Positions 10,290-60,504 of a DNA stretch of 64,000 nt are shown piece by piece. The notes under the pieces were generated by a model. It was not told where the DNA came from, did no database searches, and saw nothing but the letters and a program-made list of their open reading frames with translations. The position numbers were made by a program, and so were the translations under genes. Positions within the stretch are counted from its first letter, which is position 1. Each line of letters opens with the position of its first letter. This stretch comes from Eledone cirrhosa (lineage: Eukaryota). The stretch covers positions 257,796,001-257,860,000 of the forward strand of contig OZ024740.1 of the NCBI GenBank assembly GCA_964016885.1. Reading direction: 5' to 3'.

Positions 10290-10448
<159 letters not shown>

Positions 10449-10607
10449 ATATTGTTATACTTTGGGAGGGTCATGTTGCCAATAAGAAACACACGCACCA
10501 GTTGCTTTCACTTCAATTTAATTTATTATATATTTATAAATTTACAAATTTATAAATTTCTGGTTGGTTGGTTGGTTCCACAACCAGATAGTTGTTTATA
10601 TATATAT

Positions 10608-10652
10608 AGTCATAGTTCTTTCGTCACACACTCTGTGACCTCTTCAGTGACT
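10608..10652 (-). ncRNA. Minimal type-I hammerhead ribozyme motif in the left (inverted) pLTR
   Basis: Reverse complement of 11891-11935. Confidence 0.8.
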
Positions 10653-11085
10653 GGGGATTTCTTTCTTCGTTTCTGTGCCTTTCCTTTCTTCTATCCTACG
10701 CCAGTTTGTTTGTGTGTGGGTTGCGTGCTCAGTTTGCGCATGCGCCACATCCGGGTGTCTGTGTGTGTTTGTGTTCATTTTTCTATTTTTCTATTTATAT
10801 TTGTTTGTTTATTTATTTATTGTTGGTTGGTTGTTTGTTCTATGTGTGTGTGTGTTTTCATTTTGTGTGTGTTTTCAATTGTAAGTTGTTTGTTCTATGT
10901 GTGTGTGTGTTTTCATTTTGTCCTTAATTGTAAGTTGTGATGTTGCTGTTCCACTCATGTTGCTGTTCCACTAGTTCTTTCTATTCTAGAATATTATTAT
11001 TATATATTCTATTAGAATAGAAAGAACTAAGAACAAGGCCAATAGAATAAACTCATGGTATGATAGCAATAAATACCAGAGTGTA

Positions 11086-11619
11086 ATGTTCATCAATACA
11101 ACCCCTAGAGGCGAACTAGCCTACAAATTTAGAAGGGCCCTAAAGAAACATAATCTCAATATTAAGATAGTAGAAAGACCTGGTACCTCCGTAAAAACAC
11201 TTATTAGCAAGACATACCCGTTCCAAAGACCCTCATGTATAGATAAGAAATGTATAACCTGTAAAATAAGCCCCCATATTAACTGTAAAACTAGAAATGT
11301 AGTATATAGCATAAGATGTACTGAAGGACAATGTAGAAACAAAAATATAGTGTACATAGGTGAGACAGCTCGTAGTATAGGGGAACGAATAAATGAACAC
11401 TGGCGAGACCTCCAAGATAGTAAAGAATCATCTGTGCTCTACCAACATGCTAAGATAGAACACAGGGGTAAATTAGAGAGCATAGAAATAAAAATAGAAT
11501 CCACACACAAGAAAGACGCAATGTTTAGGCAAATTACAGAGGCAGTAAGCATAAAAGAATTAAAACCAAAATTAAATAGAAAATATGAGTGGAACAGCAA
11601 CATCACAACTTACAATTAA
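11086..11619 (+). CDS. GIY-YIG endonuclease domain with Cys-rich linker, from a Penelope-like retroelement (no RT)
   Basis: C-x4-C-x2-C-x7-C linker, NVVY...C..C...VYIGETARSIGERINEH, LYQH, FRQITEA..I..LKPKLN; uninterrupted. The frame is open further upstream to the junction, so the Met is probably internal. Confidence 0.85.
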   Translation: MFINTTPRGELAYKFRRALKKHNLNIKIVERPGTSVKTLISKTYPFQRPSCIDKKCITCKISPHINCKTRNVVYSIRCTEGQCRNKNIVYIGETARSIGERINEHWRDLQDSKESSVLYQHAKIEHRGKLESIEIKIESTHKKDAMFRQITEAVSIKELKPKLNRKYEWNSNITTYN

Positions 11620-11890
11620 GGACAAAATGAAAACACACACACACATAGAACAAACAACTTACAATTGAAAACACACACAAAATGAAAACACACACACACA
11701 TAGAACAAACAACCAACCAACAATAAATAAATAAACAAACAAATATAAATAGAAAAATAGAAAAATGAACACAAACACACACAGACACCCGGATGTGGCG
11801 CATGCGCAAACTGAGCACGCAACCCACACACAAACAAACTGGCGTAGGATAGAAGAAAGGAAAGGCACAGAAACGAAGAAAGAAATCCCC

Positions 11891-11935
11891 AGTCACTGAA
11901 GAGGTCACAGAGTGTGTGACGAAAGAACTATGACT
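11891..11935 (+). ncRNA. Minimal type-I hammerhead ribozyme motif in the 3' pLTR
   Basis: AGTCA-CTGAAGA-G-GTCAC(AGAGTGT)GTGAC-GAAA-GAAC-TA-TGACT: stem I AGTCA/TGACT, 5-bp stem II, tiny stem III, predicted cleavage after CUA at 11930. Confidence 0.8.
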
Positions 11936-12150
11936 ATATATATATAAACAACTATCTGGTTGTGGAACCAACCAACCAACCAGAAATTTATAAATTTGTA
12001 AATTTATAAATATATAATAAATTAAATTGAAGTGAAAGCAACTGGTGCGTGTGTTTCTTATTGGCAACATGACCCTCCCAAAGTATAACAATATCGGTTT
12101 CAACACACGATTTCAGATAAAGAATCTTGCTAAACAAATTCAGAAACGAA

Positions 12151-12379
<229 letters not shown>

Positions 12380-19599: not shown

Positions 19600-19830
19600 T
19601 TATAATTTGGGAGGGTCACGCTGCCAAAAAGAAAAAAAATGCAATCACCTGTTGGTTTTCACTTCAATTCCTTATAAATTTCCGGTTGGTTGGTTCATTA
19701 ACCGGATGGTTGTATATATATTGTAAAAGCTCTCTCGTCACATATTCTGTGACCTCCTCAGTGACAGTTTTCTTATTTTGCATCTTTCCTTTGTTCTGTC
19801 ATACACCATCTTGTTTTTGTGGGGGAAACA
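19600..19830 (-). mobile_element. Older partial pLTR of the same Penelope family with a mutated HHR
   Basis: TTTGGGAGGGTCA terminus; minus strand CTGAGGA-G-GTCAC..GTGAC-GAGA (GAAA changed to GAGA) at ~19723-19765. Confidence 0.75.
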
Positions 19831-20223: not shown

Positions 20224-20255
<32 letters not shown>

Positions 20256-20261
<6 letters not shown>

Positions 20262-21420
20262 ATACTTTGGGAGGGTCATGTTGCCAATAAGAAACACACA
20301 CACCTGTTGCTTTCCACTTCAATTTATTATAATAAATTTATAAATTTAGGAATTTATAAATTTCCGGTTGGTTGGTTGGTTCCACAACCAGATGGTTGTT
20401 TATATATTGTCAAAGTTCTTTCGTCACACATTCTGTGACGTCTTCAGTGACTGGGGATTCTTTTCTTTGTTTTTGTGCCTCTCCTTTGTTCTGTCCTACG
20501 CCATCTTGTTTCTGTGTGTGTGTTGTGTGATCAGTCTGCGCATGCGCCACATCCGGGTGTCTGTGTGTGTTTATATTCGTTTATTTATTTGTTTGTTTAC
20601 ATGTTACAGGTTGGTTGTTTGTTCTATGTGCGTGTGTGTTTTCATTTTGTCCTTAATTGTAAGTTGCCATGTTGCTGTTCCACTCATATTTTCTATTTAA
20701 TTTTGGTTGTAATTCTTTTATGCTTATTGCCTCTCTGATTTGTCTAAACATTGCGTCTTTTCTGTGTGTAGATTCTCTTTCTTTTTTCTTTTTTTTTGTT
20801 ATTTCTATGTTCTCTAATTTACCCTTATGTTCTATTTTAGCATGTTGGTAGAGTACATATGATTCTTTACTATCTTGAAGGTCTCACCAGTGTTCATTTA
20901 TCCGTTCCCCTACACTACGAGCTGTCTCACCTATGTACACTATATTTTTGTCTCTACATTGTCCTTCAGTACATCTTATGCTATATACTACATTTCTAGT
21001 TTTACAGTTAATATGGGGGCTTAATTTACAGATTAGACATTTCTTATCTATACAGGGGGGGGGGTCTTTGAAAAGGGTATGTCTTGCTAATAAGTGTTTT
21101 TTATGGAGGTACCTGGTCTTTCTACTATCTTAATATTGAGTTTATGTTTATCTAGGGCCCTTCTAAATGTGTAAGCTAATTCTCCTCTAGGGGTTGTATC
21201 GATGAACATTACACTCTGGTATTTATTGCTATCAACCATGAGTTTATTCTATTAGCCTTATTCCCAGTTCTTTCTATTCTATTCCAAAATTTGCTCCTAT
21301 ACAAGGGGCAGGTCCCATTTGTGTTATTATTTACCATTTTTTCCCATTTGGTTCTGGCTCCTCTATACACTCTGATTTTATCTCTTTAATTGTAACCAGA
21401 GAACTGCATACGGTGGATGA
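20256..21420 (-). mobile_element. Second, longer, decayed copy of the Penelope element (pLTR + endonuclease + part of thumb)
   Basis: Colinear with 11012-12094 in reverse orientation and extends further 5' (RMQFSGY...CPLYRSKFWNRIERT); frameshifts present; no inverted arm. Confidence 0.9.
20409..20451 (-). ncRNA. Hammerhead ribozyme motif in pLTR copy 2
   Basis: GTCA-CTGAAGA-C-GTCAC(AGAATGT)GTGAC-GAAA-GAAC-TT-TGAC on the minus strand. Confidence 0.75.
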
Positions 21421-21689
21421 AGTGTTGTATATGTCTCTCTAGTTCTTCGGGGCTGCACATGCGGGACACGTTTCTCATCACCTGTACCAAATCCGCAATG
21501 AGTATGTTGATTTTGGTATGGTCCGAAACAGCTGTTTCGGTGGATCAGATATTTGGAAGTCATGGGTTTGGCATAATGGGAATGGAGGATTTGTTTTTTG
21601 TTATTAATGGTTTCTTACCAGAACTCTGTGTCTAGTACAGGTAATCGATGGTTGGGGAGTTGGGGTGTTTAAAATGGAAAACATTGCAT

Positions 21690-28878: not shown

Positions 28879-28958
28879 TTAGAATGTATATACTTATTAG
28901 AATGTATATACTTATTAGAATGTATATACTTATTAGAATGTATATACGTATTAGAATG
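28879..28958. repeat. 18-bp tandem repeat (TTAGAATGTATATACTTA), ~4.5 copies
   Basis: Directly visible. Confidence 0.9.
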
Positions 28959-29150
28959 TAAGTATGTATACGTACATACATATTTGTATACAGACGTACA
29001 GTAGTATGTATATACATACATGCACACATATATATATGTACGTATGGGTTTACCGAACATTTATTATATTGCCCGGTTTGTTTGTAAACAAACAGCCCGA
29101 ATTATTAGTCGTACAGTGTTCGGCAACCATCGTTGCCCTTTTGTTCAACA

Positions 29151-29220
29151 CTGACAAAAGAAACGACGAACTAGTTTCTAGCTTATTGGCTGTCATCAGC
29201 ACCGTATACCTTCCTGTCAG
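29151..29220 (-). ncRNA. Hammerhead ribozyme motif (left arm)
   Basis: Minus strand CGGTG-CTGATGA-C-AGCC(AATA)AGCT-A-GAAA-CTAG-TT-CGTCG. Confidence 0.65.
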
Positions 29221-29514
29221 TTGATTGAAAGTTTGAAAGTATATACTTTCCTTACGCATATTAACGGCTGAGTAGCTTAATTTGCATATCGAATGAATTA
29301 GTCGGACGGGCGTAACGAAAACAATAAATGGAAAAAATGAAATTTCATTTCTCACTCTTAGTACGGCTGATACTTAAATATATGTATACGGAAATGCATA
29401 TATGTATACAGACGTACAGTAATATGTATATACATATATATATGCACACATATATATATGTACTCAGCCGTTAATATGCATAAGGAAAGTATATACTTTC
29501 AAACGTTCAATCAA

Positions 29515-29583
29515 CTGACAGGAAGGTATACGGTGCTGATGACAGCTAATAAGCTAGAAACTAGTTCATCGGTCCTTTGTCAG
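29515..29583 (+). ncRNA. Hammerhead ribozyme motif (right arm)
   Basis: CGGTG-CTGATGA-C-AGCT(AATA)AGCT-A-GAAA-CTAG-TT-CATCG; palindromic stem III ACTAGT; outer stem CTGACA/TGTCAG. Confidence 0.75.
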
Positions 29584-30549
29584 TGTTGAACAAAATGGCA
29601 ACGATGGTTGCCGAACACTGTACGACTAATAATTCGGGCTGTTTGTTTACAGACAAACCGAGCATTATAATAAATGTTCGGTAAACCCATACGTACATAT
29701 ATATATGTGTGCATGTATGTATGTATATACATACTACTGTACGTCTGTATACACATATGTATGTACATATACATACTTATATTTAAGTATCAGTCGTACT
29801 AAGAGTGAGAAATGAAATTTGATTTTTTCTTCATAGAATGTATATACTTGTTTACATACCAAATAAACCTTTTTTTCTTCATATAAAGAAATTACATTTA
29901 TAAATACCAAGAAGAAAAAAAGAAAATAATAAATATATCTTATAAAATCATAGAAAATTATACAAAACATTATTATTATTTCATATGTCCCTTTAAGTTC
30001 TGCGTCCAAAGTCCACCGAGGTTAGCTTTGCCTTTCATCCTTTCAGTGTCGATAAATTAAAGTAACAGAAACACACTAGGGTTGTTTTATCGACTTTCCC
30101 ATCACCAAAAATTGTTGGCCTAGTGGGTAAATCAGAAATATTACTTGAAAAATCATCATCATTATCATAGTTCGTTTTAAGTTTTTCATTCTAAAGGATA
30201 CTCTGACAGACTTCTGATGGAAATACCAAATTGACATATTTAATACAATATTGTGAAAATATGTAGAGAGAAAGGAACCAACAGCCGCGGATGTTTGACT
30301 CACCACTACCACCCACACTGCAATAACCACGATGAAAACCTCCCACGCCAGCACGAGTACCACCACAAGACCATGCCATCATGCAGCAGAGAGATATTCT
30401 ATAGATTAGCTGATAAAATAATTATAACGAAACGAATATTTGATGATAATTTGATACCATTACGTTTTAACAAGAAGATATGACACTATTGGTTTGGAAA
30501 AATTATTGTAAAGTTATCCAGTTGTAAAATAAATTTTGATGAAAGAAGG

Positions 30550-31970: not shown

Positions 31971-32557
31971 AAATGTAATCTGAGTTTTTCGAATATTAAT
32001 AATAATATTCGATTCGTTTGCAATTATGCAAACAAGCCTCTTTTTAAAGCCATGTCAGTAGAGTGAGCCACTCGTTCTTACTCTTGTGTTGGCATGTGAA
32101 CAGAACTGCAGACACTATTGTTTTGGGCTATTACCCTTCATCAGTACAGTTCACTGTTCAACTGCCAACTTTCAGAGCTAGTGAAAATATATATTTTCTA
32201 AAATATACAAAAAAAAAAATATTTTTTTCAAATATGGCAAAGCCTGTCATTGATCGCTCGTATACAGGAAACTAACTGTTCAGTGTGCTGATATGTAAAT
32301 ATGGCCGATCTGTCACTGTATATTTTAGAAAACATATATTTTCCCTAGTTCTGACTGTTGGCATGTAAACAGTCAACTGTACTGATGAAGGGTAATACCC
32401 AGAAACATTAGTGTCTGCAGTTCTGTTTACATGCCAACACAAGAGCAAGAATGCAGGGCTCATTCTACTGACATGCTTTAAAAAAAGAGGCTTGTTTGCA
32501 TAATTGCAAACGAATCGAATATTATTATTAATATTCGAAAAACTCAGATTACATTTA
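31971..32557. mobile_element. Non-coding HHR-bearing ~330-bp unit (32230-32557) preceded by an inverted partial copy (31971-32209)
   Basis: Inverted arms; the same unit occurs alone at 45462-45786. Confidence 0.8.
32356..32439 (+). ncRNA. Hammerhead ribozyme motif with long stem I
   Basis: TGTTGGCATGTAAACAG-TC-AACTGTA-CTGATGA-A-GGGT(AAT)ACCC-A-GAAA-CA(TTAG)TG-TC-TGCAGTT-CTGTTTACATGCCAACA; GUC triplet at 32413-32415. Confidence 0.78.
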
Positions 32558-35662: not shown

Positions 35663-37409
35663 TCAAATTTTCTTTAACCATCCCTGGAAACCTTTGGAGA
35701 TAGTCCCCAGTGCGCCTATGACAATCGGGATCACTTTGACTTCATGGCAGTTCCAAATCCTTTTCACCTCCCACTTTAGGTCCTGGTATCGGTTAATTTT
35801 CTCCCTCTCCTTCTCTTGCACTCTCGTGTCGAACGGGCAGGCCACATCCACAATCAGACACGATCTTTTTTCTTTGTCCACAACCACCAGGTCAGGTCTA
35901 TTGTGTTCCAGTTTTTTGTCCGTCTGTATCCTTAAATCCCACAGCACCTTCACCTGATTGTTCTCCATCACCGCCTCTGGCCTATGCTCATACCATTTCT
36001 CAGAATGTGGTAAATTGTTTACTTTGCACAGGTGCCAGTGGATCACCCTGCCCATCACATCGTGTCTCCAGCCCTTATAGTGGGTCTGGGCTAGGTGTTT
36101 ACACTCGGACACAATGTGAGCCACAGTCTCCTCTCTCTCTCCACAGATCCTGCACAGTGGGCTAGCCTCCTCCTTGTAAATATGGTGCTTCAACCACTTC
36201 GTTTTGAGGGCCTGCTCCTGCGCAGCCATTAGCATTCCTTCTGTAGCCTTTTTGAGGTCTCCTCTTCTCAACCAGTTCCATGTCTGTGGATCTCTAAATT
36301 CAGTTTTCTCAAAGAAGGTACTATGAAGGGATTTTCCCTTAAGGCTGCTCTTCCTCCTTGATGTTATTTCCTCCTTGGACATCCCCTGGCCTACTGTCCC
36401 CTCCTTCAGTACAGTTCTGAGCATTGGCTCCTTACTATAGGTCACGTATTTGTATAGGTTGTTTTTCTCCATCTGAACACAGTCCTCTATGCTGATAAGA
36501 CCTCTTCCACCCTCATATCTCCTTAGGTAGAGTCTATCGACATCACTCCTCTTGTGGAACATGTTGTAGATAGTCAATAGCTTCCTAGTCTTCCTATCCA
36601 TTTCTTTTTGTTCAGCAACATTCCATCTCAGAATTCCCGCACTGTACCTAATAATAGACACAGCTCGGGAATTTACTGCGCTTATGGCATTTCAGCTGTT
36701 CAGATGTGACTTCAATACGCTCCTTTTTTTTGTTCTTGATGCCATCAGCCTCCAGAACGCCCAAATACTTGTATCCTTCCTCAGAGTCAATTTCCTTTAT
36801 CATCTCACCTGTTGGTATCTGGATCCCGTTATTTCTGCTCAACCTACCCCTCCTCATCACAATGACTCCACATTTACCAATACCAAACTGCATACATATA
36901 TCACTGCTGAAAATACGGACAGTGTCAACAAGCACATCCAACTCCTTCTCACTTTTCCCGAAGAGCTTAAGATCGTCCATGAAGAGGAGGTGATTGATGG
37001 TAAGCTCTCCCCTTCCCAACTTGTATCCTGCTCTCACTTTTCGCAGCATAATGGTCAAGGGCATCAGGGCAAGGACAAACAACAGAGGGGACAGGCTATC
37101 TCCCTGGAAGATACCTCTCTTGATCTTCACGCTTCCCAAGGATACTCCAGTTGATGTCAACTCTGTCTCCCAGGACCCCATACTCCTGCCTAGCAACTGT
37201 CTGATGTTATCTGCCACCCTGAAGATCTCCAGGCTTTTGGTGATCCAAGAATGAGGCACCATGTCAAATGCCTTTCTGTAGTCTATCCATCCCATGGCAA
37301 GATCAGTGTGTCTCCTCCTGCAATTCCCCATTACCATCTTATCAATAAGTAACTGGTCCTTTGTACCACGTGACTTCTTTCGGCATCCTTTCTGTTCGTC
37401 CGGTAACAA
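35663..37409 (-). mobile_element. R4/Dong-like RLE LINE, family B: RT, CCHC knuckle and restriction-like endonuclease, one frameshift
   Basis: [42 protein letters not shown]; CRICGEREETVAHIVSEC, RHD, HNRPDLVVVD...DVACP...KINRYQDL. Confidence 0.93.
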
Positions 37410-37434
37410 GTTGTTTGTGTGGAGGTGATGGTAG

Positions 37435-37437
<3 letters not shown>

Positions 37438-37999: not shown

Positions 38000-40900
38000 T
38001 TTTTCTTCTTCTTTGCCGAGAAGAGGGTCGTGGGGATAGAGTCCTCAAACACTCCTTCCAGTGGGTCTTGTCAGAAGTAACCGTCTCTAACTGGTCCGAC
38101 TGGATCGCCAAGATTGACCAGCCAAGCTCATGGATGTTATCCAACCTACTTGCTCGAGGTCTGCCCTGGGTCTCCTGTCGGTTGGTTTTGCCCGTAAAAT
38201 ATATCCAGCGATTCTTTCCTGACACATTCTAACCCCATGCCCATAGTATCGGAGCTATCATCTCTCAATTCGGTGAAGTAGCAGGTCTACATTCAGTGAC
38301 TCTCTCCTGTCGAAGCTACACACTTTATCGAGTATAGTTACTCCAATGACTTTGCGGGGGAATTTCCATTTGGGCCGCATGTATTCTCGATAGTAATATT
38401 CGGTTATTACCACAGGTAACGGTAGGCACGAATACCTAATTGAAGATAGCGAGTCTTGTTTTTACGCCTACCTTCCTTCTGATTACTGAATGTTGAAGTT
38501 AACGGTTTCTGCACCAGTTCCTGCAATTATTGCACTTAATTCAGCTTCTTGCCTTGCAAAACTCCTGAAAACGGCTCTGTGATACTTGAACTTCTCTACT
38601 TGCTTCAGTAGAACTCCATTCACATATAGACTGTACTGCAAAGATTTCCCGGAGAGGATGTATGTCTCGGTTTTACGCAGCACTGATTTCATTCCAGCCA
38701 AACCTATCGAGAGCAAGTCAAAGAGCACCTTCTGTCCTGTTAAGTAACACCATGTCGTCCGCAAATTCCAGCCGATTGATCTTACACCCACGAATCATGT
38801 TACCACCTCCTGCCCGGCAACGCATGTCAATCCTGTTCATGTATATCATGAAAAGGAGAGGTGACAGTTCCCACTCTTGGTGTCGTCCAAATTCCTACAT
38901 TTAACGGTTTAGATTTAGCACCATTAATCCGAACACAAATACTGGAGCATTCGTATGAAGACATCAGGGCAAAAAGAAGCTGACCATCAATCCTATACTC
39001 CTGCACAGTCTTCCACAGCAGGTCCCGAGGGAGGAACACGGTCATATGCCTTTGCAAGTTCGACAAAAAAAGAGTATGACTTCTTGGCAATACTCCCACA
39101 GTTTCTTGAGCAGCTGCCACAGTATGAATATTTGATTGGCTGTGGTGCTTCCGGAGCAAAGAGCAAACTGCAATAGCTAGTTTTGGCTCAATAATCTCCC
39201 TGCATCTCTGCCATACACTTAACATAAACTTTACCGGGGAGGCTTAACAAGGAGGTCTTTGTGCAATTGGAACAATCTCACGTTTTGAAAATTAGCATTA
39301 TATTGCCATTGCTTAGTTGCCATTCCAGTGATCCACGACAACCTGCACACATGAGTCAGCCACAGAATACATTCTGTATTTAAAGCTTCTAACATTTCGG
39401 AGCGGATCTCATCATGCCCAGCGGCTTTGCCATATTTGATCTCTTTAACTGCTCTTGTGATCTCAGCCTCTGAGACATTAGTCACCGCTCCCAAATCTGA
39501 TGTGATTTGGTTTAGATCAGCAAAGTATTCTATCCACCACGTGAGGATGCACCTCTCTGAAGAGTGAAGAACCACAACCGCGTTCTTGATAGCATCAATG
39601 GAGGAGGGCTTCTTATTTCGAAGTCGGTGGATGGTCTGCCAAAACAATTTATTTGCTGATCGGAAATCAGATTCCAGTTTAACACAAAAGTCTTTCCATG
39701 TCTAAACTTTGGACGCTTTTACTGCCTCTGCTGCTATTTTACATGTCTGCTTGTACTGCAAGTGCTAGAAGGAGGATTTATTTCCAAGCATACTTTGTAA
39801 GCTTAGCTTCCTTCTTTGCTCGAATGGCATTTTGACCTCTTGTTTGCACCAAGAGGTGTTCCTGCCATCCAGTCTTTCACCCACAGCATTTAACAGTTGA
39901 ATTAGAAACTGCTGCACTGAACAATCTCCACTTTGAATTTGGATGCAAAGTATTTGCATTCCTAGTCCTGCTTTCCTTATCTGCCAATGCTTCCCACTTT
40001 ATCCTGTAGATTGCCCTGGACATGCCTGTTTGTGAACTTCTTTGGTTTTAGGTAGTCTCAAGTTGCAGATAACTAGATAGGGATCAGTTGACAGGTCATC
40101 TCCACTTTTATCACGAACATCCAGCGTAGAATCAAGGAGATCAGTGACAATAACAAAATCAAATATTGATTAGTGTCCCCTATTCCTTTTATACCATGTA
40201 TATGTATGGATGTCTTTGTGTTGGAAGAAGGTGTTCATAATAGAGAGTCCATTCCTAGAACAGAGGTTTAGTAAGGCCTCTCCTTTCGTATTTAGATCGG
40301 GCTAACCATTCCTTCCAATCATTCCTTTGCATGTCAGTTCGTCAGTGCCAACATATGCATTGAAGTCTTCCATCAGGATATATGACGGCGTCTTAACTAC
40401 ATCTAACACTGCAGTGACTTCACCAAGGAAGGAACTGTATTCAGACCCCTTTTTGGGGCATAAACTTTCACTACACACAGAGACCTATCGTTCAGCCTAA
40501 GCTTCAAGAGCAAATCCTCCCTCCTAACGGGATTCAGTCCGTAACACATACTGACAGCCGGAGAATTGTGTGTATCCTCACTCCTACCTGTGCAGTCATT
40601 TCTACTGTCACATCTGATTAGTGAATGTCCAGCCTCTATCCAAATCTACAGTATCAGAGACACAGAACTTTGTTGAGGAAACACGACTATATCTAGCCGG
40701 TAGAATCTAGCCTCCTCCATCATAGTGCAGTTTCAGTTTCAGTGATCTTATTCGCGCCAGTCACCAATCTGGTACTTTGTCAGACTCGGGAGGACTAGAT
40801 CTTTTTAGATTTTAGATTTTAGATTTTCTTTTCTTGCCTCGTCGTAGATACACCACTTGGTTGTGAAATTTTAGGGGGAGTGACATGTGTCACCCAGTGC

Positions 40901-45461: not shown

Positions 45462-45786
45462 TAAATGTAATATGGGTTTTTCCAATATTAATAATAATAT
45501 TCGATTCGTTTTCAATTATGCAAACAAGTCTCATTTTTAAAGCCATGTCAGTAGAATGAACCCTTCATTCTTGCTCTGGTGTTGGCGTGTAAACAGAATT
45601 GCAGATGCTAATGTTTCTCGGTTTCACCCTTCATCAGTAAAGCTCAATGTTCACTTGCCAACTGTCAGAGCTAGTGAAAATATATGCTATTTTTTTAAAT
45701 ACTAATCGGCCCAATTTGCATATCAGCAGACTGGCCAGTCAGTTTCCTGTGTACGAGCGATCAATGGACGGCTTTGCCACATTCAA
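45462..45786 (-). mobile_element. Solo copy of the ~330-bp HHR unit (degenerate HHR at ~45580-45662)
   Basis: Reverse complement of 32230-32557; CTGATGA-AGGGTGAAACCGA-GAAA-CATTAGCATC. Confidence 0.8.
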
Positions 45787-58399: not shown

Positions 58400-59475
58400 G
58401 ATCCAGGGACGAGTTCTCTCCTGCGGTCTCTGTCCTTCATCATCACCGCCATGTCCTGCGTCTCAAGAGACCAGTGTCTGTACTTAGGGCATCAACATAT
58501 GTCAACCTCGGTTTCCCTCTCCAGGTGTGTCTGTGTAGGGGCTCCCACGGGAGCACCGAGTACAGCGTCAACTCAGAATGTCGGTGAGCATGTCCAGCTA
58601 ACCTCAATTTCCTCTGTGTTACGTTGGAGCTGACGTTTGGTAGGCTCCCGTACAGCACTTAGTTCTTCGTCCTCAGTGTATACTGACAAATATTCAGAGC
58701 CATCCTCAGCATTCTCGTGTAGCACCCATCCACCATCTGAGTGAGTTTCTTGATCAGTGTCCAAAACTCAGACCCGTACAGTAGCACAGACTCCACTGTA
58801 GCACTATCAGATACTTCGTCTTAATCTCATTCATTCTCAGCCCCACACCCATCGACACAGTCTCCGCCTCCTGCGTCAACTGCTCTGCTTCCTTCAGTGT
58901 GTTTGTCACCAGAACTATGTCATCAGCAAATTCAGCATAGATAACTTTTTCACATTGACTCTCCTGTTCTAAGCCAGTGCTACAGTAAAGCAAGAGTCCC
59001 GGTGTTTCAACAGCGCAAGGTGCATACGATAGCCCACAATATATCTCACTGGAGCACACCAGCCAGAATCTCAAAGAACTCTGTCATCCTGTCAGGTGCA
59101 ATGACTTGGGCTTTGGTGTTGGTGTAGAGCAGTGATATCAAGTCCACTATCTTCTTGGGGATTTCATAAGCTTATAAGATCTTCATCAGGCAGTGACGGT
59201 CGACAGAATCAAAGGCCTTCCTAAAGTCAATGAAAACACTAACAGCAGGAAGGCTCTTTGCTCTAGCTCCCTCTAATATTCTCCTCAGCATCAGGATGTG
59301 ACTGGTGGTTGATCTTCCCTCTCTGAAGCCGTTCAGGTTGTCCTTGAGGTTCTTCTCCATCTCGGGCTGGATCCTGCTAAGAATCATTCTGTTGAGTGAC
59401 GTCAGTGAGATCCGCCTGTAGTTGTTGGTGTTAGAAAGATCTCTCTTCTTTGGGACTGGGACGGTGTTACTGATA
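58400..59475 (-). mobile_element. Decayed RTE/RTE-X LINE RT fragment
   Basis: NYRRISLTS, GFREGRSTTSHI, FIDFRKAFDSVDR, FADDIVL, LRLAGH..RH..VLPWEP..RGKPRLTY. Confidence 0.85.
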
Positions 59476-60504
59476 TGAATGTAAAGGAGCCGATTATCAG
59501 ATCGAACAAAGGAGACAGTGGTCTTTGCATTGTTAATATTAATTATAATGCAAATCGGAACTCTGAGGCGAAGGACCAACGCGAAATAAGGTATTTTGCT
59601 GAAATTGCACACATCAGAAATTGAACATGGGCCAACAATTTATAGCATGTTTACTGACCCCATTTATTTGAATGTTCTTTTTGCTAGAAATAACAACACA
59701 ATTTCCCTGAAAACGCGTTCTACATTGTTTACAAAAGACATAATGTTTAGATAGTATGGTTCTCTCTATTTAAAAGGCGATTTAGACACGACGGGACTGA
59801 ACTATGGTTAAACAATAACAAACATGATAACAGCAGCCAAGACAATAAATAATAACATAAACACAACACAGGGTGCTGTTTCCAGTGTTGCTGAGGCTAC
59901 TGTTGCTGCTGCTGCTGTTGTCGCTGTTGTTGCTGTTATAGTTGCCGCTGTTGTTGCTGCTGTTGTTGCCGATGATGTTGCTGATATTGTTACTGATGTT
60001 GCAACATTGCCAGACGGAAATAGTAGTACACAATTGGAGTTGATTGACTTGGAAATATCAAATATTAATTAGAATGTATGAACAGTGAGACACATAGAAA
60101 TACATATATGTATAAGTAATGTACACAGAGGCATTTATTTATATATGTGTGTGTGTGTGTGTATGTCTGTATGTATGTACTATATATATATATAGAGAGA
60201 GAGAGCATAAAGCAAGGAGATAATGATAACGAGGATATGTGTGGGTGTAAGAGCTGGCTGTGAGTGTTATTAAGTAAGTAACTATTTGATAGCATCAATA
60301 TAATTTAGTGCTAAACCAGGATGGCTGAGGGACATGCTGAGAAAATTGATATATTTAAAGGTTAACATAGTTTGAACCCAGGTCTCATCGGTCACCGCCT
60401 GCCGTGGTATGAATTTATAGATTGCATTAAATATGTATGTGTCTATACACTGAATGATACACACAATTGTATACACACATCTGATGTACTATATATACAT
60501 ACTA

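Follow-up and report, generated by a model that had tools for sequence, protein, structure and literature searches.

Organization of the locus

We analysed a 64,000-nt stretch of the Eledone cirrhosa genome (GCA_964016885.1, OZ024740.1: 257,796,001-257,860,000, forward strand), referred to here as the window, which contains a palindromic element enclosing the reading frame of a GIY-YIG endonuclease. The features of the element and of the DNA that borders it are listed below in window coordinates.

10309-10448, no strand: interrupted (TA)n target tract, 140 nt; its interruptions recur in the same order to the right of the element
10449-10958, minus: left arm, inverted pLTR; holds the ORF end, the 3'/5' UTR and the first 26 nt of the ORF; no tail; stops at site A
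10608-10652, minus: minimal type-I hammerhead motif of the left arm
10959-11012, no strand: composite junction with a single genomic occurrence; 13-nt duplication, 17-nt inverted piece and AT-rich filler
11013-11619, plus: remnant of an ORF truncated at its 5' end; corresponds to the C-terminal 201 aa of a 1,266-aa RT and endonuclease (EN) protein, with CX4CxxC linker, GIY-YIG domain and internal ATG at 11086
11585-12094, plus: right arm, pLTR in sense orientation
11789-11844, plus: probable promoter and RNA start of the family; hotspot at 11836-11840 where both arms stop
11891-11935, plus: minimal type-I hammerhead motif of the right arm; predicted cut after 11930
12069-12154, plus: first 86 nt of the next ORF, of which 12095-12154 form the one-sided tail; stops at site B
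12155-12288, no strand: 134-nt interrupted (TA)n tract, nearly a copy of that at 10309-10448

In a pairwise comparison the two arms are exact reverse complements over 510 nt, with no substitutions and no indels, and lengthening the alignment to 513 nt brings in one mismatch. An earlier note on this DNA had described these identical arms, an uninterrupted 177-aa frame with a Cys linker and a GIY-YIG domain, and a minimal type-I hammerhead in each arm; the arms and the frame are as described, and the hammerhead is borne out as a sequence motif. The note had overlooked that the insertion reaches 12154, with a 60-nt tail of the kind carried by Penelope-like elements (PLEs) on the right side only.

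The interrupted TA tract present at both ends of the element may be an unusually long target-site duplication of about 140 nt. The two tracts give the most complex flank match among the 126 insertions compared below, as judged against a shuffled control that ignores that both flanks can share one tract and is therefore also compatible with an internal repeat of the TA tract, rather than a duplication of the target. At another insertion (L072) a 15-nt non-repetitive word is present on both sides.

The junction between the left arm and the forward piece is composed of a 13-nt duplication of the left-arm end (10959-10971), 17 nt that repeat the beginning of the forward piece in inverted orientation (10972-10988) and AT-rich filler (10989-11012). 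A 30-mer from this junction matches the 3.0-Gb genome once, and the best 40 scored of 744 candidates include no match to the whole junction elsewhere. An A>C variant specific to the window is found in no other insertion among the loci compared.

The earlier note had also raised the idea of a non-autonomous unit that carries only the endonuclease and moves whole, like a TIR transposon, and had named a unique junction as the sign of a one-off insertion. The open 177-aa frame from an internal ATG and the perfect inverted arms are what such a unit would look like, and one sister locus (L003) turns at the same base, 11013. The junction is nevertheless single in the genome, L003 has a different junction and a different pLTR haplotype, and even the roughly 200 short palindromes of the family with a common stop site, described below, have varied junctions. 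TIR DNA transposons and MITEs occur as many copies with the same interior and symmetric ends, and the window element has a junction of its own and a tail at one end; we give the idea next to no weight. Judged from its structure, the locus is a single 5'-truncated insertion of an abundant, young EN+ Penelope-like retrotransposon in a (TA)n tract, and taken by itself it is ordinary retrotransposon debris.

The endonuclease frame and the full-length ORF

The frame at 10990-11619 is open for 209 aa, 177 of them from the first ATG at 11086. Pfam places GIY-YIG in it at 23.1 bits against a cut-off of 22.6 (E 9e-5); the linker reads C-x4-C-x2-C, and two more Cys lie within the GIY-YIG core. Its last 201 aa are the C-terminus of a 1,266-aa RT and endonuclease ORF that is intact elsewhere in the genome (L036), a full-length RT-bearing copy such as the earlier note had proposed to look for. 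By this correspondence the window frame is a remnant and no separate gene, and an open frame is what the youth of the insertion, 100% identical to 38 copies, would by itself lead one to expect.

Among 20 ten-kb stretches retrieved around other copies of this piece, three (L036, L042 and L050) hold the full-length ORF, uninterrupted over about 1,270-1,290 aa and with one common start codon. The 1,266-aa ORF of L036 gives RVT_1 at E 1e-4 and 22.4 bits, below the cut-off of 29.6, and GIY-YIG at E 9e-5, and a YVDD motif is visible in the full-length ORF. Atlas neighbours of the family protein, at 0.95-0.97, are RVT_1/GIY-YIG/HTH_animal proteins; a Pfam scan of the whole protein at E<=0.01 gave no match, and a sequence search of the PDB found no relative. 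An Asn/His/Thr-rich low-complexity stretch of variable length lies at about aa 250-400, towards the N-terminus of the full-length ORFs (L036:3535-7332), and recalls the N-rich inserts of rotifer PLEs (PMC3846280).

The arrangement of RT followed by a C-terminal GIY-YIG domain in a single ORF is that of EN+ Penelope-like elements, as are the pLTRs derived from partial tandems, the inverted 5'-truncated copy and the tail. The C-x4-C-x2-C sequence fits the CX2-5CxxC linker between RT and EN by which Neptune and Nematis elements are recognized (following the motif definition of PMC8557442).

Beside one insertion, in head-to-tail orientation, lies a distinct RT-like ORF whose C-terminal part is GIY-YIG-like (L045:1182-3887, minus strand); it is probably a member of another PLE family that shares this TA tract. 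Non-LTR RT-like frames are present as fragments in the window at 35666-37436, 39234-39701 and 59175-59639, all on the minus strand.

An abundant and young family

The family unit is 4,272 bp long and occurs as partial tandems in L036, L037, L042 and L050; the arm of the window element is the pLTR of this unit. Searching the inner piece against the 3.0-Gb genome gave 38 other places that are 100% identical over 588 nt, among the best 40 scored of 1,066 candidates. These near-identical copies, together with the uninterrupted long ORF in three of 20 stretches, agree with the earlier reading of the locus, namely that a Penelope-like element with an inverted pLTR inserted here very recently in 5'-truncated form and that its family is perhaps still active; by these signs the family looks active or very recently active.

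A 24-mer from the pLTR end has 27,851 genome matches, and 56 of the first 100 form 28 head-to-head pairs (hand count). The density of the pLTR-end motif is about one per 107 kb, and extrapolation from the first 19.5 Mb of one contig suggests roughly 20,000 insertions. The Eledone genome thus offers the question of PLE integration tens of thousands of very young products along with intact ORFs. The family also seeds long perfect palindromes genome-wide, a matter of interest for the stability of the genome, for dsRNA production and for the quality of assemblies.

The minus strand of the window holds two older family members, at 20254-21660 (91% identical to the L036 unit) and 19600-19825 (74-85%); the former carries, at 20413-20447, a hammerhead motif whose cleavage base is U. 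The window also holds a second palindromic element at 28955-29829, with 324-nt arms that are 94% alike and hammerhead-like cores on opposite strands at 29165-29199 and 29536-29570, which is probably another PLE family, and two related hammerhead-like motifs of a third family at 32382-32415 (plus) and 45604-45637 (minus). A SINE-like repeat at the flanks of L035, L046 and L050 and at about 30000-30080 of the window is one that we take to be typical of octopod genomes.

The hammerhead motif

The motif has a 5-bp stem I, the core CUGAAGA, one unpaired G, a 6-bp stem II, GAAA and a helix III of 2 bp with a 2-nt loop. It thus combines the core, helices I and II, the extra base before helix II and the NUH site of minimal type-I hammerheads. 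Rfam gave no hammerhead match, either at its gathering threshold or at E<=10, and the 71-nt stretch with the motif folds no better than its shuffles (z -1.22). We identify it as a minimal type-I hammerhead, with putative cleavage, because of the published minimal-hammerhead pattern and the pattern of variation. Across 228 homologous matches only three positions of the motif carry at least 39 changes (one each in loops II and III and the H17 base, A>U), and the 41 nt upstream hold six such positions. No recurrent stem changes were seen across these matches, in a family too young for a test of compensatory change.

The helix III duplex of a dimer has a computed energy of +1.4 kcal/mol in the window variant and of -1.7 kcal/mol in the GA variant. 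Arms that end at the hammerhead cut are not in excess: about four candidates were present among the first 100 matches (~196 Mb), against 40 genome-wide at a control position. The matches themselves come mostly from an older subfamily with U at the cleavage base, and they show no genomic footprint of ribozyme cleavage. The hammerhead is probably dispensable for insertion, and the absence of a cut-site excess is consistent with in vitro PLE work in which hammerhead cleavage was dispensable (PMC11167929).

Non-LTR retrozymes, as defined in PMC7229834 and 10.64898/2026.07.22.740005, are short tandem direct repeats with a hammerhead in each; here the motifs lie on opposite strands within an ORF-bearing insert. 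It had been suggested that a transcript from either strand of the element would fold into a 510-bp dsRNA stem with one sense hammerhead. A read-through RNA would form the 510-bp stem, but its sense hammerhead would pair with its complement in the other arm and be unable to fold.

One short and one long end

When the loci under comparison were mapped to the L036 unit, both ends could be classed in 126 head-to-head insertions; the loci had been chosen by several patterns, none of which selects end type, and L130 and L131 are probably one insertion counted twice. One end, site A, lies near nt 26 of the ORF (exactly there in 116), and the other, site B, at nt 71-86, with 94 at nt 86 and 19 at nt 81. 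One A and one B end were found in 124 of the 126; one insertion is A/A and one B/B. In the subset taken in genomic order, 26 of the 27 determinable insertions, out of 28, have A/B ends. Both kinds of end show AT-rich letters running into the TA tract, and a TA run lies at a junction in 110 of the 126 insertions. Every sister insertion examined has a junction of its own.

The tail-less A arm is longer in 31 of 108 insertions and the tailed B arm in 30; in 47 they are about equal, most of these being hotspot loci picked as such. With the hotspot loci left aside, the count over 69 simple cases is 32 against 23. The tail-less arm can exceed the tailed one by up to 3 kb (L032, L036), and in the reading proposed next the two cDNAs would overlap for up to 3.9 kb, whereas those of L1 twin priming are not known to overlap.

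We propose that the mirror arms result from two reverse transcriptions of the same sense, uncleaved RNA, with either end of the cut target serving as the primer for one of them, and our judgement tips slightly towards this reading. Priming at B alone, followed by fold-back or self-priming to make the mirror arm, trimming by the endonuclease at A and later conversion that keeps the arms alike, would also yield identical arms with one tail, and an idea of self-priming with resolution by the endonuclease has been put forward for an antisense template (PMC3846280, PMC8557442). The excess of near-equal arms and the small palindromes at junctions, including 10972-11029 in the window and one in L003, speak for such a course. 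A fold-back copy, however, cannot exceed its template in length or gain a tail that the template lacks, and the tail-less arm is the longer one in 31 of the 61 unequal cases, so that deletions would be needed after half of all events. Together with the stop hotspot and its extra G, described below, which point to a sense capped template, this makes fold-back improbable in our view.

A fold-back read or a collapsed repeat in the assembly could likewise give arms that are 100% identical, and the contigs of four public runs placed on 10900-11584 leave the junction uncovered, with depth 0 at 10969-10991 in the best run, a gap that in itself proves nothing. Against this, the two flanks are different unique sequences, the tail is present on one arm only, and 125 other insertions have the same build, many with a few differences between their arms; an artefact is very improbable. 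Three runs labelled as other organisms (X5, X6 and X7) also contain parts of the element, which over 114-223 nt (on 10900-11584) show 0-2 differences and are far less deeply covered than in X1; close relatives, carry-over or recent transfer are alternative explanations for them.

Arm haplotypes

We compared the arms of 28 out of 42 insertions, 12 having been dropped for fewer than 100 shared nt and two for lack of the end motif. Arms of the same insertion show 85 differences in total, against 382.5 for the median foreign arm, and 27 of the 28 insertions fall below that median. The partner arm is closer than the best foreign arm in 17 of the 28; a foreign arm is closer in eight, and three are equal.

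A rare 30-nt deletion, present in both arms of the window element, has 124 genome matches, and the first 100 of them include 24 pairs with the deletion on both arms (hand count). Of 52 unpaired carriers listed, 20 were retrieved: six have a partner arm without the deletion, one has a partner with it and 13 are uninformative. In the six discordant pairs the arms are also 2-4 substitutions apart, one pair has a common private SNP, and the marker of the main deletion lineage is missing; their deletions look like new slips in one arm. Later conversion between the arms may also have contributed to arm identity, as the A>C variant of the window, absent from the other insertions compared, would allow.

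These haplotypes also bear on a further alternative, in which the two cDNAs derive from two RNAs of one source locus, copied by an asymmetric RT-EN dimer whose subunits start at A and B. If one locus is active per cell, this would account for the A/B rule, for either arm being the longer one and for the common haplotype; it allows the six discordant deletion pairs, and an RT-EN dimer has been predicted (PMC11167929). It requires an extra asymmetry to reach 124 A/B insertions out of 126, and alone leaves the excess of joint stops reported in the next section unexplained. This alternative fits the data nearly as well as a single RNA does, but we regard it as less likely. Genome data cannot separate a single RNA from two RNAs of one source locus.

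A stop hotspot upstream of the ORF

Both arms stop at 11836-11840 in 262 matches, against four at a control of the same geometry placed 50 nt downstream, some loci being counted on both strands. About 200 loci are short palindromes of about 575 bp in which both arms stop at this hotspot (examples L104-L121 and L142-L165), and the letters at their junctions vary from locus to locus. We ruled out a single amplified MITE behind them, given that junction letters vary and subfamily markers follow the autonomous subfamilies; on the same grounds these palindromes are independent insertions that resemble MITEs, for which repeat annotators could take them.

The hotspot, which precedes the ATG by 230 nt, is the probable start of the family's RNA. 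Motifs upstream of it resemble Ets, NRF1 and YY1 sites. At the sense 5' end an extra G replaces the C of the reference in 20 of 82 listed loci, with eight more ambiguous (hand count), and in 17 of 36 of the loci compared, a set that is biased towards the extra G. In L1 insertions an extra G marks cap copying (PMC11702581), and the hotspot G is cap-like in this sense. Against this reading, and against double priming, a hairpin could equally leave a perfect palindrome in which both arms carry the G.

In 10 of 69 insertions the two arm stops are no more than 10 nt apart, against 2.4 under permutation, although some of these cases may reflect divergence of subfamilies from the reference. Joint stopping leans towards one RNA and is partly confounded by that divergence.

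A proposed double-priming model

We favour double priming on one sense, uncleaved RNA over fold-back or antisense self-priming because of the A/B rule, the finding that either arm can be the longer one, the common haplotype and the hotspot. In such a model the GIY-YIG domain would cut both strands of a (TA)n tract, and one 3' end of the cut target would prime at site A and the other at site B. PLE RTs are not known to carry an RNase H domain, and the trailing cDNA would displace the leading one, so that both overlap. Each cDNA would end at a random position, where the RNA is broken, or at the capped start of the RNA, and host end-joining would then fuse the two free cDNA ends, leaving microhomologies and templated fillers such as 10959-11012. 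The endonuclease frame in the loop would be a passenger, with no sense promoter upstream.

Parts of this model have precedents in vitro, where a PLE protein cut and extended both target strands and started reverse transcription at two internal RNA sites that bound the tail; a dimer was predicted, and hammerhead cleavage was not needed (PMC11167929). We see an even chance that the inverted repeats and the one-sided tail of PLEs are in general one phenomenon, namely fixed double priming on the same capped, uncleaved sense RNA at sites 55-60 nt apart. The openly accessible literature searched yielded no published double-priming model for PLE inversions.

Comparison with known systems

Inverted pLTRs with a one-sided tail have already been described in EN+ PLEs, and the structure found here is that of Pen2a_Av and its relatives (Arkhipova et al., 2013, PMC3846280; Craig et al., 2021, PMC8557442). 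The tail is 55-60 nt long in the Eledone family and 30-40 nt in Pen2a_Av and relatives, and these papers say 'optionally' or 'often' where the end rule is counted here (124 of 126). A sense capped template is favoured here, whereas the 2013 paper proposed antisense self-priming (PMC3846280). What our analysis adds is the strict rule of one short and one long end, counted in one young family. How PLEs build inverted structures is a named open question (PMC8557442), and the end rule, together with the symmetric arm lengths and the cap-like hotspot, leaves fewer mechanisms to choose from.

In its features the family is like the Neptune/Nematis-type PLEs: these share the RT and C-terminal EN in one ORF, the CX4CxxC linker, CCHH-type residues, the (TA)n bias and a hammerhead in the pLTR (PMC8557442). 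It also resembles PAc, a Poseidon element of Anolis (Frangieh et al., 2024, PMC11167929), in which two RT start sites at the beginning of the ORF bound the tail, the target is AT-rich, both strands are extended and hammerhead cleavage is dispensable. In PAc the hammerhead overlaps the start codon and initiation takes place 111-118 nt into the ORF (PMC11167929), whereas in the Eledone family about 135 nt separate the hammerhead from the ATG downstream of it, and the ends fall at nt 26 and at nt 81/86; the sections of the PAc paper considered here tie the two start sites to no inverted arms.

The hammerhead itself has the short helix I, long helix II, vestigial helix III, unpaired base before helix II and G-C first pair of the minimal hammerheads known from metazoan PLEs (Cervera and De la Pena, 2014, PMC4209133). 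That study had already noted opposite-strand pairs at distances of 100-700 bp; the window hammerhead differs in a loop III (AA or GA) that is not strictly palindromic and in arms about 1.3 kb apart.

In L1 twin priming, as here, both break ends prime on one RNA, the cDNAs are end-joined, and complete 5' ends carry an extra G (PMC11702581). The second L1 primer acts at a variable internal site, whereas the sites of the Eledone family are fixed and 55-60 nt apart; fixed double priming, if true, would count as a separate form of target-primed reverse transcription, different from the twin priming of L1.
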